Of a stretch of 64,000 bases of DNA, positions 21,092-37,444 are shown piece after piece. Source of the stretch: Neptuniibacter sp. (GTDB lineage Bacteria; Pseudomonadota; Gammaproteobacteria; Pseudomonadales; Balneatricaceae); assembly GCA_050633685.1 (NCBI GenBank), contig JBOEHA010000023.1:29514-93513 (forward strand). Direction: 5' to 3'. A program made the position numbers and the translations under genes. Position 1 is the first letter of the stretch. Every line of letters begins with the position of its first letter. The notes under the pieces are model-generated. The model had not been told where the DNA came from. It ran no database searches and worked only from the letters and a program-made list of their open reading frames with translations.

Positions 21092-21118
21092 TAAGGATCA
21101 GTGTGAGTGTGCCGATAA
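21092..21118 (+). promoter_or_regulatory. sigma28 (FliA) promoter P1 of fliC
   Basis: TAAG-N15-GCCGATAA. Confidence 0.8.
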
Positions 21119-21169: not shown

Positions 21170-21196
21170 TAAAGCGTTGCCGTCTCTGGTCGATAA
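21170..21196 (+). promoter_or_regulatory. sigma28 (FliA) promoter P2 of fliC
   Basis: TAAA-N15-GTCGATAA. Confidence 0.75.
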
Positions 21197-21299: not shown

Positions 21300-23066
21300 A
21301 TGGCAATGGTAATTAACTCAAACATTATGTCGCTGAACGCTCAGCGTAACCTGATGATCTCCCAGGGCGATCAGAACCAGGCGATGGAGCGTTTGTCTAG
21401 CGGTAAGCGTATCAACTCTGCAGCTGATGATGCAGCGGGTCTGGCAATCTCTAACCGTATGACCTCACAGGTTCGTGGTCTGGACCAGGCAATTCGAAAC
21501 GCTAACGACGGTATCTCTCTGATTCAAACTGCAGAGGGTGCACTGGATGAAACAACAAACATCCTGCAGCGTATGCGTGAACTGTCTATCCAGTCTGCCA
21601 ACGGTACTTACGATGATGGCAACCGTGCAACTCTGGATGCAGAGGTTCAGCAGCTGATTTCTGAGATCGACCGTATCTCTGAAACTACTAAGTTCAACGG
21701 TTTGAACATCCTTGATGGTACTCTGGGTAAAGTTGATCTGCAGGCGGGTGCAGATGCATACGAAACGATATCCTTGGAAATCGGTGCTACAAGTACAAAT
21801 AGCCTAGGTTCGGCCGCTTCTGCTGATGTTGTTGGTTACACAACAAGTAATGCAGGCGGTACTGATGCTGGTTCGTTTGCAGGTAGTGTAACGATTAATG
21901 GTCAGACATTGACTTCGACTGCTTTGAACGCTGCGACCAATATGGATGAATTCCTGGGTGTCATTAATGACGGCGTGGCTGGAGTTGAAGCAAGCTCGTT
22001 TGTTGAAGCTACGGCAACTGCAGTAGGTACAGGTATTTTGGCTACTGGTACGACTTTCCAGGTGCAAGTGACATTTAACGATGACACTACTGCTACATGG
22101 CAGGTTTCTGAAACTGCGAGTCTGGAAGAATTGGCAGATAAAATCACTAGTACGACAAATGGCGCAGTTGAAGCTTCAATTAACGATGAAGGTCGCTTGG
22201 TACTTTTTGCTCAAGATGCGACTCTGATTACAACAGTAGATGGATCAACTTCAGATGGAGCTTCCGGTATTACGGACGGAGCATTCGCTAACTCTATCCA
22301 GTTAACAGACACCCTTGGTGATAAAGCAATTACCATTGACTATGCATCTACTGGCGCTAGCCTCACTGCAGATTCTCAGCTACTTGGTTTAGATGAGCGT
22401 TTGACTGCAGGGGACGTGGTTGGTACCACAACGATGGTCGGTAGTACTGACTTCAACGATGGTGACGTTACCATCAATGGTGTAAATCTGGGGGCTTACG
22501 ACGCGAGTAACGACTATGATGGAACTCTAAGTGGTGCTGCTTCTTCGGATGCTAACTTGGTGAACTTCATCAACTTGAAGAGCGGTGAAACTGGTGTTGT
22601 TGCGTCTGTTGCTACCACAGATGGTATCGATCAACTGACTCTGAACTCAGTAGATGGATCTGAAATTAGTGTAGACTACCGCGAGTCTGTAGCTAGCACA
22701 ATGGAAGGCCTGTTGGGTATACAGCAGACCAACGTGGCAGCTGGATTCGGTAACTCTGTTGCAGATATTGATATCTCAACAGCAGCCGGTGCACAGGAAG
22801 CGATTGAAGTAATTGATACAGCTCTGGAGCAGATTAACTCGACTCGAGGTGACTTGGGTGCGATCAGTAACCGTCTGGACTTTACTATCAATAACCTGTC
22901 CAACGTATCTGAGAACGTAGCATCTGCCCGTTCACGTATCGAAGATGCTGACTTTGCTTCAGAATCTGCAGCGCTGTCCCGTGCACAGGTACTGCAGCAG
23001 GCTGGTACTGCGATGTTGGCTCAGGCTAATGCAGCGCCTCAGCAAGTACTGTCACTGCTTCAGTAA
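21300..23066 (+). CDS. fliC: Flagellin, 588 aa
   Basis: INSN..SLNAQRNL, RLSSGKRINSAADDAAGLAI, RSRIEDADFA.E, MLAQAN..PQ.VLSLLQ. Confidence 0.98.
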   Translation: MAMVINSNIMSLNAQRNLMISQGDQNQAMERLSSGKRINSAADDAAGLAISNRMTSQVRGLDQAIRNANDGISLIQTAEGALDETTNILQRMRELSIQSANGTYDDGNRATLDAEVQQLISEIDRISETTKFNGLNILDGTLGKVDLQAGADAYETISLEIGATSTNSLGSAASADVVGYTTSNAGGTDAGSFAGSVTINGQTLTSTALNAATNMDEFLGVINDGVAGVEASSFVEATATAVGTGILATGTTFQVQVTFNDDTTATWQVSETASLEELADKITSTTNGAVEASINDEGRLVLFAQDATLITTVDGSTSDGASGITDGAFANSIQLTDTLGDKAITIDYASTGASLTADSQLLGLDERLTAGDVVGTTTMVGSTDFNDGDVTINGVNLGAYDASNDYDGTLSGAASSDANLVNFINLKSGETGVVASVATTDGIDQLTLNSVDGSEISVDYRESVASTMEGLLGIQQTNVAAGFGNSVADIDISTAAGAQEAIEVIDTALEQINSTRGDLGAISNRLDFTINNLSNVSENVASARSRIEDADFASESAALSRAQVLQQAGTAMLAQANAAPQQVLSLLQ

Positions 23067-23157: not shown

Positions 23158-23532
23158 ATGGCAGATTCAATGAGTGTTACGGCTTCAGTCGTTGCTCCTT
23201 CGTCACAGCAGCCTCAGCAAGCTCAGCAGCCAGTAGTACGTAAGCCACCTGTGGAAGCGCCTAGCAATGAGCGGTTCCAGAAGCAGGCACAAGAGATACA
23301 AGATGTGTCTATGGAAAAGCTGGATGCTGCAATTGATCGCTTAAATGAGATGATGCAAAATAGCCAACGGTCTTTAAGTTATTCTGTTGATAAAGCATCT
23401 GATAAGGTTGTAGTCCAGGTGCGTGACTATACGACGGATCAGGTTATTCGGCAGATACCCACTGAAGAAGCGCTTAGGTTTGCAGAATCCTTAGATCGCA
23501 TGTTAGGCATGTTATTTGATCAAGAGGTCTGA
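23158..23532 (+). CDS. flaG: Flagellar protein FlaG
   Basis: L.YSVDK....VVQVRD..T.QVIRQIPTEE. Confidence 0.9.
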   Translation: MADSMSVTASVVAPSSQQPQQAQQPVVRKPPVEAPSNERFQKQAQEIQDVSMEKLDAAIDRLNEMMQNSQRSLSYSVDKASDKVVVQVRDYTTDQVIRQIPTEEALRFAESLDRMLGMLFDQEV

Positions 23533-23583
23533 ATAATTTAGGCCTCTTTATTAACCTCCCATAATTAACCAGAGGTGTTGGCG

Positions 23584-25686
23584 ATGAGTGATAGTATTAT
23601 TCGGTCACTGGGAGCCGGTTCTGGTATCGATACCACCAGTCTTGTTTCCAGCCTTGTTGAAATTGAAAGAGCGCCGAAGCAAAGTCGCTTAGATAATAAA
23701 CAGGAAACTCTGGAAGCACAGATCTCCGCATACGGTGTTCTAAAAAGCAGTCTTTCAGAATTACAGTCCTTTTTAGCCCCTTTAGCGGATAATGACACTT
23801 ATAATGCGCGTTCAGTATCGTTTACAGATAGTGAGGCCATTACCCCAAATGCCGTTGATCCCGGTGCACAAACAGGGACTTACCAGATAGAAGTTGTGGA
23901 TGTTGCTCAAGCGCAGTCCTTGGCTTCAGGTGCGTTCGCTGACAAAGATTCAGCGTTGAATGAGACCGGTACACTGACTATCAGTTTTGGTACCTGGACT
24001 TACGTTGCGGACGATACACACCTTCCTGCAGATGCTGACAGTAATGAGGATCCGGATAGTTTTGTTGTAAATGATGAGCGTGCTGCTCTAAATATTACAA
24101 TTGAAGCGGATGATACGCTGCAGGATCTGGCTGATAAAATTAATGATGAAGATGCCGGTTTGCAGGCATCAGTGCTATTGGTTGATGGTCAATACCAACT
24201 GATGATGACTGCACCATCAGGTGCCAATAATGCGATAAGAGTTACCAGTGATGATGCCACTAAAGGTGACACAACTGGCCTTAGTGTTTTTGAGTTTAAC
24301 GAGAGTGAGCACACTCAGGTAATCGAAACTCAACAGGCTCAAGATGCAGAGTTGAAAGTTAATGGGCTGACGGTTTTCCGTGAGACCAATGAAATCGATG
24401 ATGTTATCCAGGGCTTGAACTTTTCGCTGAATAAAAGTGATGCAGGTAATCCTGTTACATTTACGGTTTCTGAAGATACCTCAACCGCTGAGCAGTCAAT
24501 ACGAGATTTTGTAGAAGCCTATAACCTGTTTTATGAAACAGCACAGAGCTTGGTAGGTTATAGCGAAGACGCTGAAACAAATCAGACAACTAGAGGTGAT
24601 CTCGCTACAGACGGTACTGCTAAGACCTTAATCACTCGACTCCGTAATTCTATTGGCTCGCTGGTTCCAGGGGTCGAGACAGGTTTTACTGCATTAACCA
24701 ATGTTGGTATCCGAACTGAACTTGACGGTACATTGGCGATTGATGAAGACGACTTTTCCTCGGCAATGAATGAAAACTTTGATCTGGTGGAAACGCTCTT
24801 CGCGACGGATACCACTTCAACCAGTAATCAGGTAGACGTGTCGGCCGGTAGTTATGCCGGGGGTACGGTAGCGGGTAGTTATGAAGTAGTAGTAACTACA
24901 GATCCGGAAAAAGCTACGGTAGCCGTTGGTAATCCAACACCGGCATTCAGTTTTCCACTAACCATCGCTGAAGCGGATGCATCATATTCATTTGCGCTTA
25001 CTGTGGATGGAACCAAGAGTACAACAATTACGTTGACAGGCTCTTATTCATCGGAAGATGAAGTAGCATCAGCCTTGCAAGCGTTGATCAACGGTGATGT
25101 GAATATTGATAATGCCGGGGTTGGTGTTGATGTCTCTTTTGACAGCTTAAACAATAATTTTGTTTTTACTTCTCGTAGTTATGGGAACTCATCCAGTATC
25201 AACTTTTCGTCAGCAGACTTTGGCGTAAATGCGGGGCAGTTTGGTTTGGTAGCAGACTACAGTGATACCGGGGTGGATGCTGAAGGTACAATAGCTGGGG
25301 AAGATGCTTTTGGTTCGGGCAATATTCTTTTGCCGCCGATTGATTCAGATGCCTATGGCCTGAACTTTACTATAGGTGAAAATGCCGTTGCTGCAGGCAC
25401 TGTAACTACCAACTTCTCACGCGGTTTTGCTGGTGAGTTGAATGTATTAATTGATAGTTTCCTGGGCGGCTCAGGTAGTATTCAGTTGCGTGAGGATAAT
25501 ATCAGTGATTCGCTTAGCGAAATTGCGGATGACCAAGAAGAACTTGATCGCAAAATGGAAAAACTGGAGATTCGTTTAACGGCACAGTATCTTGCGATGG
25601 AACAGATTATCAGTAGCTTCCAAAGTACAGGCAATCAGCTGGATGGTATTCTTGAACGCCTCCCATTTACCGCAACAAATAATTAA
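23584..25686 (+). CDS. fliD: Flagellar filament cap protein
   Basis: SLGAGSGID, QISAYGVLKS, AQAQSLAS, AQDAELKVNGL, QYLAMEQII. Confidence 0.95.
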   Translation: MSDSIIRSLGAGSGIDTTSLVSSLVEIERAPKQSRLDNKQETLEAQISAYGVLKSSLSELQSFLAPLADNDTYNARSVSFTDSEAITPNAVDPGAQTGTYQIEVVDVAQAQSLASGAFADKDSALNETGTLTISFGTWTYVADDTHLPADADSNEDPDSFVVNDERAALNITIEADDTLQDLADKINDEDAGLQASVLLVDGQYQLMMTAPSGANNAIRVTSDDATKGDTTGLSVFEFNESEHTQVIETQQAQDAELKVNGLTVFRETNEIDDVIQGLNFSLNKSDAGNPVTFTVSEDTSTAEQSIRDFVEAYNLFYETAQSLVGYSEDAETNQTTRGDLATDGTAKTLITRLRNSIGSLVPGVETGFTALTNVGIRTELDGTLAIDEDDFSSAMNENFDLVETLFATDTTSTSNQVDVSAGSYAGGTVAGSYEVVVTTDPEKATVAVGNPTPAFSFPLTIAEADASYSFALTVDGTKSTTITLTGSYSSEDEVASALQALINGDVNIDNAGVGVDVSFDSLNNNFVFTSRSYGNSSSINFSSADFGVNAGQFGLVADYSDTGVDAEGTIAGEDAFGSGNILLPPIDSDAYGLNFTIGENAVAAGTVTTNFSRGFAGELNVLIDSFLGGSGSIQLREDNISDSLSEIADDQEELDRKMEKLEIRLTAQYLAMEQIISSFQSTGNQLDGILERLPFTATNN

Positions 25687-25712
25687 TTAGATTTATAGAT
25701 AAGGTGCCCTTG

Positions 25713-26114
25713 ATGAGTGTTAACTTGAACGCGTTGAAGCAGTATCAAAGTGTTGACTTGCGTGCGACAGTTGAGACGGCTTCGCCACACAAAATGGTAT
25801 CGATGCTGTTTGATGGTGTTTTAAAAGCTCTTGCAACAGCAAAAGGCTGCTGTGAACGAGCAGATATTGAAGGTAGATCGGCCTCAATTAATAAGGCTTC
25901 AGAAATTATCATAGGCTTAAAAGGGTGTTTAGACCTTGAACAAGGTGGAGAGGTCGCTCAGCGTCTTGATGAGCTATATGATTATTCACTCCGCCAGTTG
26001 TACCAGGCTAACAAGGAAAATAGTTCTGAGCTCGTACAGGAGATTATTGGTCTGATATCGGAGGTGAGCTCTGGCTGGAACGATATGCCTGTAGAATACA
26101 AAGTCGGAGAGTGA
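25713..26114 (+). CDS. fliS: Flagellar export chaperone FliS
   Basis: ASPHKMVSMLFDG, L.LEQGGEVA..L..LYDY. Confidence 0.95.
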   Translation: MSVNLNALKQYQSVDLRATVETASPHKMVSMLFDGVLKALATAKGCCERADIEGRSASINKASEIIIGLKGCLDLEQGGEVAQRLDELYDYSLRQLYQANKENSSELVQEIIGLISEVSSGWNDMPVEYKVGE

Positions 26115-26118
26115 TGAT

Positions 26119-27903
26119 TTGACCAGCAATGTGAGTGGTTTGGTCAAGCGTGCGACTCAGCTTGCCGCTGAATGCGAGAAAAAAAAAGACTTCAAGCAGG
26201 CTATCGAACTTTACATTAAGGCAATAAATTTAGAGCCTACAAACACCCTTGCAGTTACCTCGCTTTGCGCCATTTATTTTAATATGGGCAAGCATGACGT
26301 GGTGGAAAAAATTCTGCTGGGGGTTATCAAAATAGCGCCTAACAATTGTTACTTTTATTTCCAACTTGGAAAGCTTTATACGACACAACGACAATTTGAT
26401 AAGGCGATAGATCAATTCCTAAAATCCTTTAAGTTAAACAAAGATCTTAAAGAGAATTACCTCAACCTTGCTCACGCCTACGCTGAGAAACATGAATATG
26501 TGACAGCGCTGGAGTATGCTCAGGAGGGAATTAAAAAATATCCGGATTATGCCAAGCTATACAATAACATTGCTTATATTTTACGAGCTCTAGGCGATAT
26601 TGAGGGTGCTTTTAGGTATCAAGAGATTTCTGTTGATAAAAACCCTAGAGAATTTAGTTTGTTCAGTAATTACCTTTTCTATCTGTCTCAATCACCCTTT
26701 GTTTCGCCTGAAGAATATTTAGAAAAAGCTAAAGAGTATGGCTGTAGAGTGTCGCAAGGCATTAAACAATATGAGACTTGGCCAGGGTTAGCTTCAAAAG
26801 AAAAACTGCGTATTGGTTTTGTTTCAGGTGACTTACGCAATCATCCGGTCTCGTTCTTTATTGAAAACTGGCTAGGGTTGATTGATAAAACTAAGTTTGA
26901 ATTGGTTGCTTATTACAATTTTTCTCAAAATGATGAGAAAACATTGAGTTTGCACTCGATGTTCTCTGAGTGGTATCCGGTGACTGCGTTATCAGACGCA
27001 GAACTTGCAGAAAAGATTCACAAAGACCATATCCATATCCTGATTGATTTATCGGGTCATACTGCACATAACAGATTACCCGCATTTGCATGGAAACCCG
27101 CACCAATACAGATTAGCTGGGTGGGTTTTCCTACGAGTACCGGTTTGGAGCAGATGGATTACATGATGCCAAATCGGAATATGTCTCCTCCAGAATTCGA
27201 TCATCACTATCTTGAAAAACAGTGGTATTTACCTTCAGCTGGTTGTTTAAAGCCACCCGAAGTTGATATTGATGTGAATGATCTACCAGCCATTAAAAAC
27301 AGATATATAACGTTTGGTAGTTTCCACAGTGTTACTAAGCTAACAGATCAGGTGCTAACAACTTGGAGTGAGATATTAAAGCGGCTTCCAGATTCTAAAA
27401 TTTTATTTAAATGTAAAGAGCTAAAAGAGCTGAAAACCCAAGAGGTACTGTTGGAAAAAATGGTTAACTTGGGGATTGAGCCAGATAGAATTCTTATAGA
27501 GGGACCCTGTCCGCTACAAGAATACTTTAAGGCTTATCATTCTATTGATATAGGCTTAGACCCATTCCCATATAATTCAGGAACTGTTGGTTATCACAGT
27601 GTCTGGATGGGTGTTCCATATGTAGCGTTAGCGGGTGATCGGTTGCTTTCCAGAGTGGGCTATTCAAATATCCAGTTGGTAGGGCTTGAGCAATTTGCAG
27701 CCGAAAGCATTGAAGAATATATTCAGATAGCAGTTGATGTCGCATCCGATTTGGAAAATTTACAAAGCATTAGGCAAAAGCTCAGACAAACCTCTTTAGA
27801 TTCAGGTTTGTATGATGGCAGTAAAATGGCTTTAGATCTGGAAACAGCTTTTGAAAGTATGTGGCAGCAGTTTCTGAATAATAACGATAATACAGATAAA
27901 TAA
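26119..27903 (+). CDS. TPR plus GT41 (OGT/SPINDLY-like) glycosyltransferase, putative flagellin glycosyltransferase
   Basis: N-terminal TPRs, then LRIGFVSGDLRNHPV, ILIDLSGHT..NRL, PAPIQISWVGFP.STG, FGSF, DIGLDPFPYN, MGVP; TTG start 4 nt after fliS. Confidence 0.88.
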   Translation: MTSNVSGLVKRATQLAAECEKKKDFKQAIELYIKAINLEPTNTLAVTSLCAIYFNMGKHDVVEKILLGVIKIAPNNCYFYFQLGKLYTTQRQFDKAIDQFLKSFKLNKDLKENYLNLAHAYAEKHEYVTALEYAQEGIKKYPDYAKLYNNIAYILRALGDIEGAFRYQEISVDKNPREFSLFSNYLFYLSQSPFVSPEEYLEKAKEYGCRVSQGIKQYETWPGLASKEKLRIGFVSGDLRNHPVSFFIENWLGLIDKTKFELVAYYNFSQNDEKTLSLHSMFSEWYPVTALSDAELAEKIHKDHIHILIDLSGHTAHNRLPAFAWKPAPIQISWVGFPTSTGLEQMDYMMPNRNMSPPEFDHHYLEKQWYLPSAGCLKPPEVDIDVNDLPAIKNRYITFGSFHSVTKLTDQVLTTWSEILKRLPDSKILFKCKELKELKTQEVLLEKMVNLGIEPDRILIEGPCPLQEYFKAYHSIDIGLDPFPYNSGTVGYHSVWMGVPYVALAGDRLLSRVGYSNIQLVGLEQFAAESIEEYIQIAVDVASDLENLQSIRQKLRQTSLDSGLYDGSKMALDLETAFESMWQQFLNNNDNTDK

Positions 27904-27967
27904 GATAGGTTTAGCAGGTATTTAACCTTTCTTTATCTGTTATACAAATACTTAGAATTGATCTTTG

Positions 27968-29095
27968 ATGAAGCATCCTTTTTATCGCCCAGCCGCTCTC
28001 AATACAACTCGCCTGGTTCAGTACCTGGAAGAGATTAATGAAAGACGGTGGTACACAAATAATGGACCTCTGATTCGTCAGTTGACGGAGAAACTCGAAG
28101 ACTATCTTGGGGTTAAAAATCTGTTATTGGTGTCCAGTGGAACGGTAGCACTACAAGTCGCATATAAAGCATTACATCGAAAGGGAAGAATTTACACGAC
28201 TCCCTTGAGCTTTATCGCAAGTTCAAGTGCATTCGGTTGGTTGGGAAGTGAGATCCATTATGCAGATATCGATAACCAAACGCTGAATCTGGATCCGGAA
28301 TCTGTAAGAAATTCTTTGGATTTAACTGCGGACGATACGATTGTAGCCACTCACCTGTACGGCAATCCGTGCGATATAAACGCCTTTGAAAACTTAAAGA
28401 ACGAAACGCAATGTAAAATTATTTATGATGCGTCCCATGCGTTTGCGACCCGGTTTCAGGGGCAGAATATTCTTAACCTGGGCGATGCTTCGACGGTTAG
28501 TTTTCATGCTACAAAGCTGTTCCATACTATTGAAGGTGGTGGTGTAATCTTTGCAGATGAGGATGATCTGGCTCGAGCCCAGAAAATGATTAACTTCGGT
28601 TTCAATCAGAAAAACGAAATAGAAGAGATTGGTATCAACGCTAAAATGAGTGAGCTTCATGCCGCAGTAGGTTTGGTTGTGTTGGAGGAGCTTGATGCAA
28701 TTATTGAACAACGTTGTGCTATTGCAGATCAATACCGTTCGATTCTCGATCAGACAGATATAGCTACGACAGTGATCCAGGAAGGAACTGATATTTGTTC
28801 ACCCAGTTATATGCCGATTGTGCTTGCGAGTGCTAAAGAGAGGGAGTTACTCCAGGCCAGTATGCTTCATGACGGTATTGAAACAAGAAACTATTTTGAT
28901 TCCTTGCAATCCACCACGGAATTGTTTGAGGGGTCTCATAAAGTTCTTCCAAACTCCCAGCGTTTTAATAAGCGCGTTTTATGCCTTCCCCTTTATCCTG
29001 AACTAACTTCTGCCGATATAACTTATATATGTGATCGTTTGCGATTTAATCTGGAGAACATCAGATCTGAAGAGCAAGTATGCTGTGCACAGTAA
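27968..29095 (+). CDS. DegT/DnrJ/VioA-type PLP sugar aminotransferase
   Basis: WYTNNGP, ATHLYGNPC, IYDASHAF, SFHATKLFHTIEGG, GINAKMSE, LCLPLYP. Confidence 0.9.
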   Translation: MKHPFYRPAALNTTRLVQYLEEINERRWYTNNGPLIRQLTEKLEDYLGVKNLLLVSSGTVALQVAYKALHRKGRIYTTPLSFIASSSAFGWLGSEIHYADIDNQTLNLDPESVRNSLDLTADDTIVATHLYGNPCDINAFENLKNETQCKIIYDASHAFATRFQGQNILNLGDASTVSFHATKLFHTIEGGGVIFADEDDLARAQKMINFGFNQKNEIEEIGINAKMSELHAAVGLVVLEELDAIIEQRCAIADQYRSILDQTDIATTVIQEGTDICSPSYMPIVLASAKERELLQASMLHDGIETRNYFDSLQSTTELFEGSHKVLPNSQRFNKRVLCLPLYPELTSADITYICDRLRFNLENIRSEEQVCCAQ

Positions 29096-29166
29096 CAGAT
29101 CATTTCCTGGTTCTTTAAACCAGTGTGCTTATTGTCACGCTGATTGAAATGAGTGGTATGCATTCA

Positions 29167-30219
29167 ATGTTGAAGGTGGTTGTGGTGGGCCCAGGACTTA
29201 TGGGTCGTCAACACATAGAGCTTCTTGCTTCTACAAATGATGCTTGTTTATCAGGTATCGTTGCACCTGCTTCAGATAAAAATATGCAATATGCTGAAGA
29301 GCTGGGCGTGTCTTTTTTTTCAGACCTAAGAGCTTGTATCGAACAGGTTCAACCAGCCGGTGTTATCATCTCTAGCCCCAATGAATTCCACGCAGAGCAA
29401 GCAGCTATATGTGTGGAAAACCGGATTCCTTTTCTGTTGGAAAAGCCGCTGGCGACAACTCAGGATGAAGGCCGGGAGTTGCTGGATATAGTACTCAAGG
29501 CAGAGTTTCACGGTAATGCAATGGTGGGCCATCACCGTTCCCATGGTGCAATTATCAAGAAATCATCAGATCTAATTGATAGTGGAATCTTGGGTCGTTT
29601 AGTTGCTGTCCAAGGAAGTGCACAATTTTTCAAACCCCATAGTTACTTCGTTCAGGGGCCATGGCGAAGCAAGCTTGGTGGCGGCCCCATTCTTCTGAAT
29701 ATGATTCATGAAATTAGTAACCTCAGGGCGCTGTTGGGGGAGATTGAATCGGTACAGGTGATCGCGTCTTCAGATGTAAGGAACACAGAGGTGGAAGATA
29801 CAGCTGTCATCAACTTACGTTTTGAATCAGGCACTTTAGGTTCTTTTGTTTTGTCGGATTGTACCGCGTCATCAAAAAGCTGGGAGATGACTTCTGGTGA
29901 AAACCCCAGTTACCCTTTTTTCCCTAATGAATATTGCTATGTGCTTGCTGGTACGAAAGGAACCCTAGAAATTCCATCTATGGTGATCAAAGCATATGGG
30001 GAAGAGAAAGTAGCCTCGTGGATGACATCTTTTGAAGAATCGCGAGCGGGCTTAGATCGAGTGGATCCGCTGGAAAAACAGATTGCAGAATTTGTCGAGC
30101 TGATGAAAGGTGAAACAACGCCAACAGTAACGATTCAGGACGGCTACAGGAACCTGGCTGTGGTCGAGGCGATCAAGCGTGCCGCTGAAAATGGCTCTCT
30201 GGAAAAAGTCGAGTATTGA
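29167..30219 (+). CDS. Gfo/Idh/MocA family NAD(P)-dependent oxidoreductase
   Basis: VVGPGLMG, SPNEFH, LLEKP, VGHHR, GGGPIL..MIHEI; start uncertain (29125-29167). Confidence 0.88.
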   Translation: MLKVVVVGPGLMGRQHIELLASTNDACLSGIVAPASDKNMQYAEELGVSFFSDLRACIEQVQPAGVIISSPNEFHAEQAAICVENRIPFLLEKPLATTQDEGRELLDIVLKAEFHGNAMVGHHRSHGAIIKKSSDLIDSGILGRLVAVQGSAQFFKPHSYFVQGPWRSKLGGGPILLNMIHEISNLRALLGEIESVQVIASSDVRNTEVEDTAVINLRFESGTLGSFVLSDCTASSKSWEMTSGENPSYPFFPNEYCYVLAGTKGTLEIPSMVIKAYGEEKVASWMTSFEESRAGLDRVDPLEKQIAEFVELMKGETTPTVTIQDGYRNLAVVEAIKRAAENGSLEKVEY

Positions 30220-30221
30220 TT

Positions 30222-31367
30222 ATGGGTGAAAAAGTTCTGTTGGTTGATACTGGCTTTTCAGCTCAACCGATCTATCAATCCATTCAGAAACTAGACTTTG
30301 ATGTCCATGTAGTGGGAGGTCGTCCGGAAGATCCGTTGGCTAAAACGGCCGAGCAATACTGGTGTTTGGATTACTCTGATACTGACAAGTTAGCTGAGTT
30401 GGTTAGACGGGAAGAATACAGATTTATCGTACCGGGCTGCACAGATCGTTCTTACACATCCTGTTCTGTAGTCAGCGAAAGGCTGGGCTTTCCTGGAATA
30501 GAATCACCAGAGAATGATGCCCAGATCAATCTGAAAGACAAATTTAGAAATTTGTCGGAAAGGTTGGGTGTTCCTATTCCTGCGGTGCAAAAACAATCAG
30601 CGGATCTATCCTTTCCGATGATTGTAAAGCCGGTCGATGCCTTCAGTGGAAACGGTATTACAGTAGTGCATCGTCCAGAGCAATTGAACGAGGCGGTAGA
30701 GTTAGCGAGAAACTGCTCGCCATCACAAAATTATGTTTGTGAAGAGTATCTGCAAGGCCAGCTATACAGCCACTCAGCTTTCGTGAAAAGTGGCAAAGTG
30801 GCGGTGGATTTTATAGTGCGCGAAGACTCCACCGCTTATCCTTTTGCGGTTGATTTGAGTTATGTGGAATCTGATTACCCAGAGGCTCTTTTGGGTGAAA
30901 TGCGTCAATCCATAGAATCCATCGTAGCTGAGTTGAACCTGTTGGATGGATTGATTCATACGCAGTTTATTCAGACGGATGGGCGGGTTTATCTGATTGA
31001 AATGACCCGAAGGTGCCCCGGTGATTTATACAGCTCGTTGATAGAGCTTCAAACCGGTTTTGCCTATACAGATAATTATGTGCGGCCTTTTTTAGGCCTA
31101 GAGATAGAGCCGGTGCAACCGAGCCAAACAGATTGTGCAGTAGTCAGGCATACAGTTTCTTCCAAGAGTGCTACCGCGTTTAATGGCATTCGATATCTGG
31201 AAACTACACAGATGGAGAAATGGGTGCCTTTAGCTGTCACAGGTGAGCAGCTTCTGCCAAGCCCGAAAGGTCGTATTGGGATTGCGTTTATGCGCTGCGT
31301 AGGTCCATCTGAACTAGAAAAATTGTACGGCACGCTTTTACGCCGTGAGCTATATGAACTGTTTTAA
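30222..31367 (+). CDS. ATP-grasp fold protein
   Basis: KDKFR, PMIVKPVDAFSGNGIT, CEEYLQG, GLIHTQF, YLIEMTRRCPG. Confidence 0.85.
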   Translation: MGEKVLLVDTGFSAQPIYQSIQKLDFDVHVVGGRPEDPLAKTAEQYWCLDYSDTDKLAELVRREEYRFIVPGCTDRSYTSCSVVSERLGFPGIESPENDAQINLKDKFRNLSERLGVPIPAVQKQSADLSFPMIVKPVDAFSGNGITVVHRPEQLNEAVELARNCSPSQNYVCEEYLQGQLYSHSAFVKSGKVAVDFIVREDSTAYPFAVDLSYVESDYPEALLGEMRQSIESIVAELNLLDGLIHTQFIQTDGRVYLIEMTRRCPGDLYSSLIELQTGFAYTDNYVRPFLGLEIEPVQPSQTDCAVVRHTVSSKSATAFNGIRYLETTQMEKWVPLAVTGEQLLPSPKGRIGIAFMRCVGPSELEKLYGTLLRRELYELF

Positions 31368-31418: not shown

Positions 31419-33281
31419 TTGAAGATACTAGCGATTAACTTTGGGCATGATGCCAGCCTGGCTCTTTATGAAGATCAGAAGCTAACTTCGTTTTTGGAGC
31501 TGGAACGTGTTACTCGGCTGAAACACACTGTGGGTGTCAGCCGCTCAGATGTTGTCGGCTTTCTGCAAGCTAACTCTCTACGTTGGCAGGACCTGGAGTT
31601 TGTCGCTTTGGTTGGTACCCAGTGGTACAAAGCTAAGCATTCCGATGACATTGTTATTGAAGAGTCTGATGCTGAGTTCTCTGTTTTGAAAGACCATGGG
31701 GTTAAGACGGAAGCTGACAGTGAGGTTGGTGGTACCGATAAATGGTACGACTACGCGCATCATCAGAACCGCTTAGGAGAGGTTACCCAAACAGAGTTTC
31801 CGTTGGATGCTGTTTCAGGAGGCGTTTGCGACTTAGGTAAGTTTTCTATAGATCAGGTGGGAATTGATCCCTACAAAACGGTTTATCCATATTCGATTGA
31901 AATTGATGGCATAAAATTACCTGCTGCTTTTGTTCCTCACCAGATAGCTCATGCCGCCTATGGTGCATTCTATCGCTCTCCAGAAAAAGAGAAGGCGATT
32001 ATCCTAAGCCATGATGGCGGTTGGCCACATATCCCGTTTAATTCGGGCGGTATTTTTTTATATCAGAATGACACGATCTGTCCTGTGTTAGACCCCAGAA
32101 TGTTCTTGGGTCAGCTGTATCAAATCATGGGCGAAAGAGCGGGGTTTCGCCCGTCAGAGGCTCCGGGCAAACTGATGGGGCTAGCTTCTTACGGTATTCC
32201 AGAGCCTGCTGGGTTGACCAAACTGTCCCAGGTTTTAGAAGGCTTGGCAGAAAAATGTGCAGAGATATCTGCCGAGCAATTCCATGTGAAATTTGCTCAG
32301 CTTTGTGACCTGATCGAAGCGGAAGCGCCTAACGTCTATGTGCGCGAAGGGGCTAAGCAGTATGATTTCAGCTTTGAGAATGTGCGTGCCTCGATTGGCA
32401 TTGCTGCCTACACACAAAAGTTGGTTGAAAACATGTGGGCAGGAAAAATGTCGGTGCTGCTGGAGTCTATCGCAGATCGCTATGAGGTTGCCGATAGTGT
32501 GGCAGTGGTCGGGGGCTTTTCGTTGAACTGCCCAAGCAATAGCTTATTGCAGTCCTCGCTGACATCTTTAAAGGTAAAACCGTTACCTGGTGGATCCGAT
32601 ATGGGAGTTTCAATTGGAGCCGGGGCGTTGCTAGTGTCTTTCCTTACAGGGAAATTCCCATGTAATGATCAACAAAACCCTTTATCTCCTGCCTTTCCTC
32701 CCAGGCCTGATATTTTTGAATGTGATGTGCCTCAATCACTTAAGGCAATGGAGCTTGATGATCCGCTGGGTTTTTATGCGACTCAGTTGGTGGAAGGGAA
32801 AATTTTCTGTCATGTGGAAGGTGAATCTGAAGTGGGTCCACGGGCGTTAGGGCATAGGTCAATTATTGCTCATGCGGCAAATGGAGCAGTTCGAGATCGT
32901 ATTAATCAATGTAAAGGCCGTGAAATGTGGCGTCCATTAGCGCCTATTGTGCGTGCTTGTGATCTGCCAAAATTCTTTGAAGGTCCTGATGCCGGGGAGA
33001 TGTCACGTTTTATGTTGTCTACCTATAGGGTTATTAACCCTAAACAGTTGCCGGCCGTTACTCATGTGGATCAGACTGCCAGAACGCAAATGGTAGAGGG
33101 CGGTACGATTTCAGATTTGTTGGATCGGCTTTCTGAAGTGAGTGATATTCCGGTGATTGTGAATACGTCGTTTAATGTAGCAGGAGAGCCATTGGTGGAA
33201 AATTTGCGGCAGGTATCAGACAGCTTTGAAAAATTAAACTTCGATTTTATATATATCAACGGTTCTATTTATCGCCTATAA
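31419..33281 (+). CDS. Carbamoyltransferase (NodU/CmcH/TobZ family)
   Basis: HDASLA, HQIAH (metal HxxxH), SHDGG, GKLMGLASYG, GGFSLNC, SDMG, EVGPRALGHRSI, KGRE.WRPLAP, HVD.TARTQ, NTSFN. Confidence 0.92.
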   Translation: MKILAINFGHDASLALYEDQKLTSFLELERVTRLKHTVGVSRSDVVGFLQANSLRWQDLEFVALVGTQWYKAKHSDDIVIEESDAEFSVLKDHGVKTEADSEVGGTDKWYDYAHHQNRLGEVTQTEFPLDAVSGGVCDLGKFSIDQVGIDPYKTVYPYSIEIDGIKLPAAFVPHQIAHAAYGAFYRSPEKEKAIILSHDGGWPHIPFNSGGIFLYQNDTICPVLDPRMFLGQLYQIMGERAGFRPSEAPGKLMGLASYGIPEPAGLTKLSQVLEGLAEKCAEISAEQFHVKFAQLCDLIEAEAPNVYVREGAKQYDFSFENVRASIGIAAYTQKLVENMWAGKMSVLLESIADRYEVADSVAVVGGFSLNCPSNSLLQSSLTSLKVKPLPGGSDMGVSIGAGALLVSFLTGKFPCNDQQNPLSPAFPPRPDIFECDVPQSLKAMELDDPLGFYATQLVEGKIFCHVEGESEVGPRALGHRSIIAHAANGAVRDRINQCKGREMWRPLAPIVRACDLPKFFEGPDAGEMSRFMLSTYRVINPKQLPAVTHVDQTARTQMVEGGTISDLLDRLSEVSDIPVIVNTSFNVAGEPLVENLRQVSDSFEKLNFDFIYINGSIYRL

Positions 33282-33294
33282 CACAGGCCGGATT

Positions 33295-33915
33295 ATGAAA
33301 ACATTTACTGCGAATAATATTAATATTTATTTCCATCCAAACCATAACGGTGGGGGTATGGATTTTGGACAGGACTATATCAAAGTTATAGCTCAACGTT
33401 ATGGGAAGCCTTTTAATAAGGTTTATGAGTTTTGTTCAGGCCCAGGGTTTATTGGCTTCTCATTGTTGGGGGCTGGCCAAGCAGAGCATCTGATTTTGTC
33501 TGACCTTTATGAGCCATTGAATGAAGTGATCGAAAAAACGGTCGAAAGTAATGGGTTAGAAGGGCGTGTGAATTTTTACAATATGCCAGGTGTAAAGGAA
33601 CTACCGGAGGGAGAAATTGATTTAGTTGTTTCCAATCCGCCCCATTTTTTAACAGAGCAAAGTTGGTTGGGGCATATTGAAAACCGGATTTATATCGATG
33701 AGAACTGGGAAGTCCATAGGGAGTTCTATCATAACATTGCCTCCAAATTGTCTGATGATGGCATCGTTCTATTTCAGGAAAATGCATTAGGTTCAGGTTT
33801 GCATGACTTTGAGCTGATGATATCCGAGGGTGGGCTACAAGTGACTGATGTGTTTTCCATGGAAAATAGGGTTGGGAATGATCAGATCTATTATATCGAG
33901 GCAAAAAAGTGCTAG
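33295..33915 (+). CDS. Class I SAM methyltransferase, HemK/MTS-like
   Basis: EFCSGPGFIG (motif I) and DLVVSNPPHF (NPP motif). Confidence 0.8.
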   Translation: MKTFTANNINIYFHPNHNGGGMDFGQDYIKVIAQRYGKPFNKVYEFCSGPGFIGFSLLGAGQAEHLILSDLYEPLNEVIEKTVESNGLEGRVNFYNMPGVKELPEGEIDLVVSNPPHFLTEQSWLGHIENRIYIDENWEVHREFYHNIASKLSDDGIVLFQENALGSGLHDFELMISEGGLQVTDVFSMENRVGNDQIYYIEAKKC

Positions 33916-33924
33916 GTGGTATGA

Positions 33925-34860
33925 GTGTCTAAGGTGGAAGTGCCTAATAAGGCATTAAAACAGTTGTACATTAAGAACGATCTATACGCAGCTGTCCATG
34001 TCGGGTTGCACCTTTCGTTGTTCCTGTTTTTTTTTGCTGGAAGTTGCTACCTAATTGATAAAGGCGATTTTCTCGCAGCATTTATATGTCTGATTGCGAC
34101 GGGGTTTCTGGGGAATTTTTTGGGCTGGTCAGGTATTGGTCATGAGTTATTGCATGAAACAGTTTTTAGTAGTCGTAAATTAAACCGTTTTTTGGTTAGA
34201 GCATTTGCGATTTATTTATGGAATAACTGGGCATACCATCAAATCAGTCATCGCATCCATCACCGTTCAACCATGCTTACTGGTGTGGATTTTGAATTTG
34301 ATCCTAATCAAAAACACCTGGAGCGATGGGATGTTTTTATCTCAGTTACTTTTAATTATAAATTTCTTGGCAGAGCATTAAGGAACACCCTTGAAAATGC
34401 ATTTGGAACCGTTAATGGTGGGTTTGCCTCATTATATATTCTGAATAATGATGAGAACTACAGAAAGGTAGTAAGTGCTGCGAGACTGATACTTTTGGCC
34501 CATTTCTCTATATTTTTGATAGCCTGGGCAGTCGATTTTGTTGCCATTTCAATGGTTTTTAGCCTAAGCCCTTTTATGTGTAACTTGTTTTCAAGAATCC
34601 TAGCATTGTCACAACATTTTGGTATGGAAGTTGATGTTAATGATCCCAGAAGAACAAGCCGCTCTATCACAATTCCTCGTTGGCTGGAGTTCTTCTATGC
34701 AAATATGAACTACCATGTTGAACATCATATTTATGCGGGTATCCCTTTTTATAATTTGCCTAGGGCTAGAAAGCTTCTTGAGGATCAACTGCCTGAAGCT
34801 CTGAATTTGAAGGATGCTATTCAGTTGGCACTAAACCCACCCCAAAAAAGTACAACGTAA
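33925..34860 (+). CDS. Membrane di-iron fatty-acid-desaturase-like protein
   Basis: Three His boxes HELLH, HRIHH and HVEHH with hydrophobic segments; IPFYNLP. Confidence 0.85.
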   Translation: MSKVEVPNKALKQLYIKNDLYAAVHVGLHLSLFLFFFAGSCYLIDKGDFLAAFICLIATGFLGNFLGWSGIGHELLHETVFSSRKLNRFLVRAFAIYLWNNWAYHQISHRIHHRSTMLTGVDFEFDPNQKHLERWDVFISVTFNYKFLGRALRNTLENAFGTVNGGFASLYILNNDENYRKVVSAARLILLAHFSIFLIAWAVDFVAISMVFSLSPFMCNLFSRILALSQHFGMEVDVNDPRRTSRSITIPRWLEFFYANMNYHVEHHIYAGIPFYNLPRARKLLEDQLPEALNLKDAIQLALNPPQKSTT

Positions 34861-35891
34861 TGAATCTATTAGTTTTTCCATCTGATAACGTAGATGAAGA
34901 ACGGTTTTATCTGTTGAATAGAGTGGGGGTGGAGATCGTTCCTGCAAGCTCATCCCTAAGTCACTTATTCTTAGGTAAGACAGTAAATTTTTTACCGTAT
35001 GTTACCGATAAGGTATTTGTACAGGCATTCACTCGTTTGGTAGTTGAAAAAAACATTACGCACTTTTATACGGAGCATGCGGGGGTATGGGGTGTTATAG
35101 ATTCGTTATTAAAACAATCTGATGAATTACAGTTTGAACTTGTGGCGGACTTCCCATTTGATTCAACGTGGCAAGAATTTGAGAAATATTCATTATGGGC
35201 CGATGCGGTTAATAATTCTGAGTCATTGTTAGGTGGTACAAGGCTGGACAAAGATAGTTTGGCATCATTATGCCAACGGTATAATCAGATACCCGGCCAA
35301 TCTGATAATGTGAAGCTTGAAGCATTGGTCAATCTGGCAACTTCTATTCCTGAAGGCGATTGGGTGGAAATAGGGGCTTTATATGGAAGGTCTTCTTATG
35401 CTTTGGGGGTGCTTGCGGGTTACAACAATTCCAAATTAATCTGTATTGATCCCTGGGATGCTTTGAAGGTTCGGCCACAACAGGGTAAAGCGTCTATTTT
35501 GGATAGTCAGTCAGACCTGATAGATAACACTAAAATATTTAATGTTTTTCGATCTTCAATCGCGTTGTTGAGTAATACTTCTTATATCCGTAGCCTCTCA
35601 GAAGATGCTTTGCCACGATATCTAACATCTGATTTTGATGGCAGATCAGTCACGATAAATAAAAGTATCTCTTTTCTGCATATTGATGGTAATCATCATT
35701 ACGACGAGGTGAGCAAAGATATTGCTTTATGGGAACCTCATGTCTGTGTTGGAGGCTGGATAGCTGTCGATGATTACCTCTGGGCTTTTGGTGATGGGCC
35801 TAAGAAGGCGGGGGATAATTTACTTAGAACCGGTCGCTTTGATGAGGCGTTCGTGTCTGGTGATACGCTGTATATGCGTAAGGCTTTTTGA
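34860..35891 (+). CDS. Methyltransf_24-like SAM methyltransferase with extra N-terminal region
   Basis: VEIGALYGRSS, IDPW, FLHIDGNHHY..V..D, GGWIAVDDY. Confidence 0.8.
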   Translation: MNLLVFPSDNVDEERFYLLNRVGVEIVPASSSLSHLFLGKTVNFLPYVTDKVFVQAFTRLVVEKNITHFYTEHAGVWGVIDSLLKQSDELQFELVADFPFDSTWQEFEKYSLWADAVNNSESLLGGTRLDKDSLASLCQRYNQIPGQSDNVKLEALVNLATSIPEGDWVEIGALYGRSSYALGVLAGYNNSKLICIDPWDALKVRPQQGKASILDSQSDLIDNTKIFNVFRSSIALLSNTSYIRSLSEDALPRYLTSDFDGRSVTINKSISFLHIDGNHHYDEVSKDIALWEPHVCVGGWIAVDDYLWAFGDGPKKAGDNLLRTGRFDEAFVSGDTLYMRKAF

Positions 35892-35952: not shown

Positions 35953-36004
35953 TTTTTGGTATTCTAAGGCCACTATAATCAAAAAGTTAAACGAGACGTG
36001 ATTG

Positions 36005-37444
36005 ATGTCAGATTCGCCTCAAGTTCTCATCATTGATGATGACCTAACCCGGCGCGATGTATTGGAAGCTTCCCTTGCGTTTCTGGATCAGAAGTGCAGA
36101 TTTTTCAGCTTTGTGGATTGGCTGCAATCGGTTCAGGATAAAGAGAATGTTCCATCGATTAAGTTGATTTTGCTGGGGCAGAGTCAATTGCCTTTGTCAC
36201 TTGAAAAAATCATTGGCGACCTTGCTGATCAGTACCCTACCTCTGCAATTATCACGATCGGTGAATGGAATGAAGCGGCAAGCCTTCCCGATGAAATCGG
36301 TGCTCGTTTGGTTGGGCAGTTGCAGTTGCCTCTCAACTACCAGCAGGTTTTGGATTGTTTTCATAAAGCACAAATCTACCGTGGTTCACTGATTTCAAAA
36401 TCATCCGCCAGTGATTCAGCAGAACTTTTTGCCTCTCTGGTGGGTAATAGTGAGTCGATGGTTCAGGTTCGTTCCTCTATGCAGAAGGTTGCTGGGAGGG
36501 ATGTGAATGTCATGATCACAGGTGAGTCTGGTACAGGCAAGGAAGTTGTCGCGCGTAACCTGCATGATCACTCTGTTCGAAAGAACGGTCCATTTGTTCC
36601 CATCAACTGTGGGGCAATACCAGCAGATCTTCTTGAAAGTGAACTCTTTGGTCATGAAAAAGGCGCTTTTACTGGAGCGGTGAGTAGCCGGCCAGGTCGA
36701 TTTGAGTTGGCGCAAGGGGGGACTCTGTTTCTGGACGAAATCGGGGATATGCCTCTGCCGATGCAGGTCAAACTTTTGCGGGTCCTTCAGGAGCGTAAGT
36801 ATGAAAGGATCGGCGGTAGTAAAACGCTTGAAGCTGATGTCCGGGTGATTGCGGCCACGCATAAAAACCTAGAGGATATGATCGTTTCCGGGGAATTCAG
36901 GGAGGATTTGTATTATCGCTTGAATGTCTTTCCTATCGAGATGCCACCACTTCGTCAAAGAATTGAAGACTTACCGCTGTTGCTGGAAGAATTACTGGAA
37001 AGACTAAAACAGCAGGGGCTGGATTCTGTAAAACTGCACGCCAGTGCGATTGAATCCCTGAAAAAGCATTCATGGCCGGGCAATGTCCGTGAACTTTCAA
37101 ATCTGTTGGAAAGGCTCGCTATTGTATATCCTGACGGAGTGGTGGGTGTGTCAGAGTTGCCCGCGAAATTTCAGTATATAGATGAGCCTGATCCCGAAAG
37201 ATATAAGGTAATTGAGAATGGTGAGTCAGGTAGTGCTGATGTGTTGTCTTCGGCACCCTCACTGGATCTTTTGCCGGAAGGAGGTGTTGACCTAAAAGAG
37301 CATCTGGAACTGATCGAAAAATCACTTATCGAGCAGGCGCTAAGCCGAAATTCTGGTGTGGTTGCCAGAGCTGCTGAGACGTTACAGATCCGAAGGACTA
37401 CCTTGGTTGAAAAAATGCGTAAGTTCGGGATACAGCGGAAATAA
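36005..37444 (+). CDS. fleQ: Flagellar master regulator FleQ/FlrA
   Basis: Atypical N-terminal domain; [48 protein letters not shown]. Confidence 0.93.

Follow-up and report, generated by a model that had tools for sequence, protein, structure and literature searches.

A carbamoyltransferase of the NodU/CmcH/TobZ family in a flagellar gene cluster of Neptuniibacter sp.: a candidate tailoring enzyme for a flagellin glycan

What does a carbamoyltransferase related to those of antibiotic and Nod-factor biosynthesis do among the genes for the flagellar filament? The question is raised by a 64,000-nucleotide stretch of a Neptuniibacter sp. genome (assembly GCA_050633685.1, contig JBOEHA010000023.1, positions 29,514 to 93,513 of the forward strand), hereafter the window, in which such a gene (positions 31419-33281) lies between fliS and fleQ. 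A reading of the DNA from its letters alone, the sequence-only reading, had called the product a full-length member of the NodU/CmcH/TobZ family with a series of diagnostic motifs, placed it in a flagellar locus, and proposed a carbamoylated flagellin glycan. The open reading frame (ORF) is borne out with every motif located, and the family call is fully backed at the level of sequence, of catalytic residues, and of fold. The flagellar surroundings are likewise confirmed, with fliC, flaG, fliD, and fliS upstream and fleQ, fleS, and fleR downstream. We consider it probable, from sequence comparisons, that the enzyme carbamoylates an N-acylated sugar derived from a dTDP-4-amino-4,6-dideoxyhexose, which a GT41-family glycosyltransferase would put on flagellin. 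A carbamoylated flagellin glycan is the best-supported reading, and probably the right one, given an operon-like block whose first gene starts 4 nt past the fliS stop codon, a sole glycosyltransferase of the TPR-GT41 kind, four homologues in flagellar loci, and co-inheritance with fliC.

Family, active site, and fold of the enzyme

The 620-residue protein is read from a TTG start codon, and the 3' end of a Shine-Dalgarno sequence (AGAGG) lies 6 nt ahead of it. Both Pfam models that define the NodU/CmcH/TobZ family (PF02543 and PF16861) match, Carbam_trans_N over residues 3-401 (68 bits, E 1e-18; cut-off 24 bits) and Carbam_trans_C over residues 454-617 (153 bits, E 5e-45; cut-off 27 bits). Together with a full-length structural model, these matches confirm a two-domain architecture of a Kae1/ASKHA-like N-domain and a YrdC-like C-domain. 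The motifs fall at residues 174 (HQIAH), 197 (SHDGG), 393 (SDMG), 474 (PRALGHRS), 499 (KGREMWRP), and 582 (NTSFN), and the genome holds no second Carbam_trans_C gene. Against the NCBIfam NodU equivalog NF041651 the protein scores 100 bits, where the cut-off is 1000 bits; it is therefore a family member, and a NodU orthologue is ruled out.

The closest sequence matches in the PDB (phmmer) were VtdB (7xb6, E 5e-36), TobZ (3ven, E 9e-35), GdmN, and NovN, over a range of E 1e-26 to 5e-36. Allowing for a 6-residue offset in the chain numbering of TobZ, its residues H14, H114, H118, D137, D338, K443, and S530 correspond to H10, H174, H178, D199, D394, K499, and S584 here. The metal-binding HxxxH and the two aspartates of the Kae1-like domain (H174, H178, D199, D394) are present, and the residues probed by TobZ variants, which the titles of PDB entries confirm as H14N, K443A, and S530A, all have equivalents (H10, K499, S584). 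Each of the 115 aligned homologues keeps H174, H178, D199, D394, K499, the PRALG.RS segment, and R501/E502/R505/P506; D199 is one column off in the HMMER alignment and sits in a conserved DG motif. H10 is kept in 113 of the 115, and S584 is invariant in a 27-sequence alignment (A1). An AlphaFold2 model built from A1 has a mean predicted local distance difference test score (pLDDT) of 91.6 and a predicted template modelling score (pTM) of 0.92. Its 19 top Foldseek matches in the PDB are TobZ, GdmN, VtdB, and NovN, all O-carbamoyltransferases (E ~1e-26 to 3e-29, template modelling (TM) score 0.57-0.73), and Kae1/TsaD and HypF rank far below them. Compared with TobZ, the Kae1-like domain has ~60 extra residues between ~65 and ~168, which are ordered in the model.

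The chemistry of TobZ and GdmN is established: carbamoyl phosphate and ATP give carbamoyl-AMP, and the carbamoyl group is then transferred at an iron site. The carbamoyl chemistry proposed here follows from that work and from the conserved residues, which predict a two-domain carbamoyltransferase that is active. If it works like TobZ, the YrdC-like C-domain would form a carbamoyl-adenylate from carbamoyl phosphate and ATP, and the Kae1-like N-domain would then hand the carbamoyl group on, most likely to a hydroxyl, which is the acceptor in every relative of characterized structure. The gene is under purifying selection, with a dN/dS of 0.12 between the window and its closest homologue locus (L135) and of 0.07-0.15 for its neighbors.

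Homologues, mosaic inheritance, and the fliS-fleQ interval

All genes from fliC-flaG-fliD-fliS through the eight of the island to fleQ-fleS-fleR lie on the forward strand. The carbamoyltransferase gene is fifth of the eight, in a tightly packed one-strand block with intergenic gaps of -4 to 62 nt. Its neighbors, in order, are genes for the TPR-GT41 glycosyltransferase, a DegT/DesI-like aminotransferase, a Gfo/Idh/MocA oxidoreductase (Gfo), and an ATP-grasp ligase on one side, and for a HemK-like methyltransferase (MTS), a desaturase-like enzyme, and a Methyltransf_24 methyltransferase on the other.

The nearest relatives of the carbamoyltransferase come from metagenomes only (Table 1). Among species-representative genomes, a single-protein scan found nothing and an alignment-based scan found only relatives of at most 39% identity; the 80 loci from those genomes (<=39%) and L017 (39%) are without the cassette and without flagellar genes, so that these distant relatives are uninformative on function. 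Four close homologues lie in flagellar loci, one at 89% (L135) and three at 66% identity (L114, L010, L011). Every homologue of at least 43% identity has a Gfo oxidoreductase and a set for N-acylation as neighbors, along with a DegT aminotransferase wherever the contig is long enough; rmlB and rmlA lie inside the island in L135, L114, and the congener G007. In other cassettes (L010, L011, L015, L116, L117) the ATP-grasp ligase is swapped for a hexapeptide transferase, an AMP-binding enzyme, and a small carrier-like protein, an interchangeability which argues that both sets N-acylate an amino sugar. MTS is always paired with a desaturase-like or PhyH enzyme, and cassettes without this pair carry a radical S-adenosylmethionine (rSAM)/SPASM enzyme. 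A PhyH (Fe/2-oxoglutarate) dioxygenase replaces the desaturase-like gene beside MTS in L135:13700-14410, L116:6414-7127, and L018:12904-13644. By sequence this looks like a non-homologous replacement of a hydroxylase, and the swap in L135, despite 89% identity of the carbamoyltransferase, fits both enzymes as C-H hydroxylases.

Table 1. Loci (L-numbers) holding homologues of the window's carbamoyltransferase (CT), with identities to it
Locus	Identity	Gene content and order
L135	89%	fliC-flaG-fliD-fliS-GT41-DegT-Gfo-ATP-grasp-CT-rSAM/SPASM-(MTS, PhyH)-Methyltransf_24-(rmlA, rmlB)-fleQ
L114	66%	FliS-GT41-RmlB-RmlA-DegT-Gfo-ATP-grasp-CT-radical SAM
L010	66%	between flagellin/flaG/fliD and fliS/fleQ; HMW1C-like transferase, hexapeptide transferase, AMP-ligase, Gfo, carrier protein, MTS, desaturase-like gene, DegT, FliB
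L011	66%	like L010, rSAM/SPASM replacing MTS and desaturase-like gene
L115	53%	GT41-ATP-grasp-Gfo-CT-MTS-desaturase-like-Methyltransf_24
L012	52%	RmlB/A or RmlC, CT-MTS-desaturase-like-DegT-ATP-grasp-Gfo, then GT1/GT2; polysaccharide-like, no flagellar gene in view
L013/L014	50%	same as L012
L015, L117, L116	43-44%	DegT-hexapeptide-AMP-ligase-Gfo-small protein-rSAM/SPASM-CT-Methyltransf_24, with TPR-GT2 proteins
L018	37%	FdtA, two DegT, ATP-grasp, PhyH, MTS, SPASM

Identity to L135 is high from the flagellin gene to the carbamoyltransferase gene (fliC 93%, fliS 91%, GT41 86%, DegT 93%, Gfo 95%, ATP-grasp 90%, carbamoyltransferase 89%) and falls beyond it (MTS 32%, Methyltransf_24 57%, fleQ 66%). 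L010 resembles the window at the carbamoyltransferase (66%), MTS (74%), and the desaturase-like protein (67%); its DegT protein reaches only 27%, and its glycosyltransferase and acylation genes are not homologous to those of the window. The congener G020, in turn, shares fleQ/S/R at 96-98% (fleQ 96%) and fliS at 61%. Judged by these identities, the window is a three-way mosaic, close to L135 from fliC to the carbamoyltransferase, to L010 over the carbamoyltransferase, MTS, and desaturase-like genes, and to G020 in fleQ/S/R. The 86-95% identity of the first part to L135, against 66% at fleQ, indicates that flagellin and glycan genes were exchanged as one block, and at the level of sequence no other argument for a role of the enzyme in a flagellin glycan is as strong as this co-inheritance with fliC.

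It is improbable, in our view, that the island as a whole, or its tailoring part at least, works toward a polysaccharide of the cell surface (O-antigen or capsule) and lies next to fliS incidentally. Homologous cassettes do occur together with RmlA/B/C, GT1, GT2, an ABC transporter, and polysaccharide epimerases, without flagellar genes in view (L012, L013/L014, L018), but an initiating transferase, a flippase, a polymerase, and a GT-C enzyme are all missing from the island, and its single glycosyltransferase is of the soluble, protein-directed TPR-GT41 type and directly follows fliS. The four flagellar-locus homologues and the block shared with fliC speak against a polysaccharide as well. An even less probable target, to which we give very little weight, is either a protein modified directly (Lys, Ser, or Thr of flagellin) or an unrelated small molecule. 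HypF acts on a protein cysteine. Within the NodU-like family itself, one enzyme acts on a peptide lysine (PMC13174530), but the constant neighbors among homologues of at least 43% identity are the sugar aminotransferase, the Gfo oxidoreductase, and the N-acylation system, and no particular protein, and the same enzyme clade also occurs in loci without flagellin.

The cluster names assigned to housekeeping proteins of the genome point to a Neptuniibacter-like organism. No carbamoyltransferase orthologue was found in the 22 other species of the genus that were searched, the single match among them being a distant paralogue (32% identity, C-domain only). To place the island, the fliS neighborhoods of 15 congeners (loci L019-L033) were compared. 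In six, fleQ directly follows fliS and the interval is empty; the others hold islands of 7 to >14 kb, and those of G016, G004, and G002 (7 to >14 kb) are unrelated or weakly related to the one described here. The island of G007 reads GT41-RmlB-RmlA-DegT-Gfo-ATP-grasp-[GT2/radical-SAM fusion]-Methyltransf_24, and that of G020 reads GT41-DegT-Gfo-ATP-grasp-[class III aminotransferase, FkbM methyltransferase, Fe-alcohol dehydrogenase]-Methyltransf_24, with Methyltransf_24 kept in both at 58% identity. In both islands, as in the window, the core is present, from which it follows that this part is conserved and that the slot bounded by the ATP-grasp gene and Methyltransf_24 can be exchanged; the window has the carbamoyltransferase, MTS, and desaturase-like genes there. 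From these sequence comparisons, the fliS-fleQ interval is a hypervariable recombination hot spot in the genus.

Several further features of these loci were recorded. The tailoring slot of G007 (L029:9820-12132) encodes a 770-aa fusion of a GT2 glycosyltransferase and a radical SAM domain. The fliS matches in G008 (C55:9027-9428) and G010 (C15:216-614) each contain one in-frame stop (TAG and TAA, respectively) and could be pseudogenes or assembly errors. The flagellins of L010 (L010:19295-20110) and L011 (L011:18779-19594) have 271 aa each and are therefore without a variable outer domain; the glycosyltransferase in both loci is HMW1C-like (~610 aa) instead of TPR-GT41, and a FliB-like lysine methyltransferase (FliB_C) is encoded in L010 as well. 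In L015 (L015:9203-13195) and L016 (L016:6461-10453), the carbamoyltransferase/Methyltransf_24 pair is immediately followed by a gene for a 1330-aa fusion (GT2, TPR, DUF5672, and Methyltransf_21) which, from its domains, may be a giant protein glycosyltransferase.

Neighboring enzymes and a proposed pathway

The features of the cluster are collected in Table 2. Of promoter elements, only the sigma-28-like sites before fliC were found, and there is no sigma-54 site near the island. The listed fleS ORF begins at a GTG codon at 37356, so that its first 89 nt (37356-37444) coincide with the last of fleQ, and the true start of fleS probably lies further downstream. A modest drop in GC content is seen at the GT41 gene and the last three genes of the island (0.39-0.41 versus 0.45-0.49), which is suggestive of a foreign origin for these genes and not decisive.

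Table 2. Features of the flagellar cluster and its island in the window
Feature	Positions	Strand	Basis and remarks
Two sigma-28 (FliA)-like promoter matches upstream of fliC	21092-21118, 21170-21196	+	TAAAG-N14-GCCGATAA, 1 mismatch each; consensus matches only
fliC, 588-aa flagellin, presumed glycan acceptor	21300-23066	+	Pfam Flagellin_N, Flagellin_C
flaG	23158-23532	+	Pfam FlaG
fliD, filament cap	23575-25686	+	Pfam FliD_N, FliD_C
fliS, flagellin chaperone, left island border	25704-26114	+	Pfam FliS
TPR + GT41 (OGT-like) glycosyltransferase	26119-27903	+	Pfam Glyco_transf_41 E 3e-53, TPR repeats
DegT/DesI-like pyridoxal phosphate (PLP) sugar aminotransferase	27965-29095	+	Pfam DegT E 4e-77
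Gfo/Idh/MocA oxidoreductase	29125-30219	+	Pfam GFO_IDH_MocA N and C domains
ATP-grasp ligase, presumed N-acylating amide ligase	30216-31367	+	Pfam ATP-grasp_4, ATP-grasp_3
NodU/CmcH/TobZ-family carbamoyltransferase	31419-33281	+	620 aa, TTG start; Pfam, structure, residues
MTS, HemK-like small-domain methyltransferase, NPPH motif	33295-33915	+	Pfam MTS, NCBIfam PrmC/HemK-type matches
FA_desaturase-family di-iron enzyme, presumed hydroxylase	33925-34860	+	Pfam FA_desaturase E 6e-34
Methyltransf_24 methyltransferase, last island gene	34860-35891	+	Pfam Methyltransf_24 E 3e-16
fleQ, right island border	36002-37444	+	Pfam FleQ + Sigma54_activat + HTH_8

The aminotransferase has its best PDB match in 2po3 (E 1e-48) and its top NCBIfam match in PLP_DesI (225 bits, below cut-off). 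The top PDB matches of the oxidoreductase are 3q2i (E 2e-19) and 3q2k (E 1e-17), which we take to be WlbA sugar-nucleotide 3-dehydrogenases. In the PDB, the ATP-grasp protein comes nearest to enzymes of the PurT/GAR type and to an L-amino acid ligase, and the desaturase-like protein gave weak NCBIfam matches to the arginine hydroxylase GntB (55 bits) and to DesB. An rmlB-rmlA pair lies on another contig of the same genome and carB is also encoded, which makes both presumed precursors available. The ATP-grasp protein was also considered as a supplier of carbamoyl phosphate and rejected, because it occurs without a carbamoyltransferase in G007, G020, and the flagellin islands of Dickeya and Acidovorax, is absent from the carbamoyltransferase cassettes of L010, L011, L015, L116, and L117 (which have the AMP-ligase, carrier, and hexapeptide transferase set instead), and because the genome encodes a normal carB.

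These enzymes suggest a pathway in which RmlB, encoded with RmlA elsewhere in the genome, would convert dTDP-glucose to dTDP-4-keto-6-deoxyglucose, which the DesI-like aminotransferase would turn into a dTDP-4-amino-4,6-dideoxyhexose. The ATP-grasp ligase would then N-acylate the sugar, amidating its amine with a carboxylic or amino acid, and decoration by the oxidoreductase, di-iron hydroxylase, both methyltransferases, and carbamoyltransferase may come next. Finally, the TPR-GT41 protein would move the finished sugar onto Ser/Thr residues of FliC while the flagellin is still in the cytoplasm and awaits export. Which sugar and which acid are involved, the order of the steps, the acceptor atom, and flagellin as the final carrier are all points that we infer.

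Several observations weigh against this reading. The aminotransferase and the oxidoreductase score far under the NCBIfam equivalog cut-offs, and the identity of the sugar is therefore a guess. Scans for promoters and terminators did no better than shuffles and gave no evidence of value. Cassettes with a carbamoyltransferase of 37-52% identity also occur in polysaccharide-type GT1/GT2 loci (L012, L013, L018) with no flagellar gene visible, and the module is therefore not flagellum-specific. Nor is O-linkage assured, since the NodU-like carbamoyltransferase StdF carbamoylates the epsilon-amine of lysine to homocitrulline in a RiPP (a peptide made on ribosomes and then altered post-translationally), the product then being hydroxylated (PMC13174530).

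StdF thereby provides a precedent for a variant that we regard as unlikely, in which the enzyme would serve a flagellin glycan but carbamoylate nitrogen. A ureido group would form on the side-chain amine of an aminoacyl group (from the ATP-grasp ligase) or on the sugar amine, and the desaturase-like hydroxylase and HemK-like N-methyltransferase would act on the ureido side chain. The predicted amino sugar, the relation of the amide ligase to L-amino acid ligases, and the resemblance of the MTS enzyme to HemK-type amide-N methyltransferases would all suit such a scheme; nothing, however, points to the identity of the ligated acid, and the GntB match, which as the top NCBIfam match of the desaturase-like protein would recall an arginine hydroxylase, is weak and no better than that to the lipid desaturase DesB. 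Moreover, all 19 top structural relatives are O-carbamoyltransferases, and for this reason O-carbamoylation is favored.

Tentatively, the argument may be carried further. It is possible, although we hold this with less than even confidence, that the carbamoyltransferase, the HemK-like methyltransferase, and a C-H hydroxylase (desaturase-like, PhyH-like, or radical-SAM/SPASM) form a small exchangeable tailoring module that plugs into different amino-sugar N-acylation cores and moves between flagellin islands and polysaccharide loci. Here it would yield an acyl-viosamine on flagellin that is hydroxylated, N-methylated, and carbamoylated (as a carbamate or ureido group), a sugar not described before.

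Significance and comparison with known systems

Glycans on flagellin are surface structures of great variability, with effects on the assembly of the filament, on the adsorption of phages, and on recognition by immune systems or predators, and their chemistry is known for few model organisms only. If the favored reading is true, carbamoyl would be a substituent not previously described on a flagellin glycan, and TobZ/NodU enzymes would gain a protein-linked sugar as an acceptor besides antibiotics and Nod factors; if the tailoring-module reading is true, new glycan chemistry would follow, with likely roles in the evasion of phages or grazers by marine bacteria. The pathway offers handles in its conserved core (GT41, aminotransferase, oxidoreductase, and N-acylation system), in its swappable tailoring slot, and in the non-homologous swaps of ATP-grasp for AMP-ligase/carrier/acyltransferase and of desaturase-like for PhyH enzymes. 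The source genus is marine and apparently cultivable, and the prediction is open to direct mass spectrometry. Our searches of the open-access literature found no carbamoylated flagellin glycan and no NodU-type enzyme in a flagellin island, carbamoyl being mentioned only for pyrB/argI-type or ATP-grasp enzymes; this agrees with the remark in the sequence-only reading that such a glycan was not known from characterized systems.

Among characterized carbamoyltransferases, TobZ, the tobramycin/kanamycin 6''-O-carbamoyltransferase, has the same Kae1-like and YrdC-like architecture and fold (Foldseek E 3e-29, TM 0.66-0.72), and the protein described here keeps its Fe ligands (HxxxH, D, and D), its catalytic His, and, at the carbamoyl-adenylate site, its Lys and Ser. 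From this likeness the use of carbamoyl phosphate and ATP via carbamoyl-AMP is expected. TobZ, GdmN, VtdB, and NovN differ, however, in sharing only ~22-30% identity with the protein and in belonging to antibiotic clusters, whereas the setting here is that of a protein-glycan pathway. The Nod-factor O-carbamoyltransferases NodU and NolO are members of the same superfamily and likewise have a sugar hydroxyl within a glycoconjugate as their target, but they are set apart by the sub-threshold NodU score, and no nod genes lie near the carbamoyltransferase of the window.

Among flagellin glycosylation systems, that of Burkholderia cenocepacia FlmQ is of the viosamine type. Another is the viosamine island of Pseudomonas syringae pv. 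tabaci, comprising vioA, vioB, vioM, vioR, vioS, and acp (PMC3927599, PMC4622738), whose sugar is a 4-amino-4,6-dideoxyglucose that is N-acylated and methylated. The likeness to it lies in an island at a flagellar locus, a predicted 4-aminotransferase acting on a dTDP-6-deoxyhexose, an N-acylated amine, methylation, and a dedicated protein O-glycosyltransferase; the logic of vioB and acp further resembles the hexapeptide transferase, AMP-ligase, and carrier cassette of L010, L011, L015, and L116. In contrast to vio-type systems, N-acylation here would be carried out by an ATP-grasp ligase, and the carbamoyltransferase, HemK-like methyltransferase, and di-iron hydroxylase have no described counterparts in them. 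Closer in gene content are the flagellin islands of Dickeya dadantii (Dda3937_03419-03424; PMC6637903) and Acidovorax avenae K1 (Fgt/Fmt/Fcs/Fst; PMC4622738), in both of which gene loss lowers the mass of flagellin. They share a core of an OGT-like transferase, a transaminase, an ATP-grasp protein annotated as 'carbamoyl phosphate synthase', and a methyltransferase, with an oxidoreductase in Dickeya. No carbamoyltransferase of the NodU/TobZ type and no desaturase-like enzyme is reported from them, and 'carbamoyl' refers there to the ATP-grasp annotation only. Like such islands, the one described here lies inside the filament gene cluster in the same orientation, encodes a soluble TPR-GT41 protein, and has variable content at a fixed flagellar site. 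The most likely reading is that a carbamoyl tailoring step has here been added to a known sort of flagellin glycosylation island.

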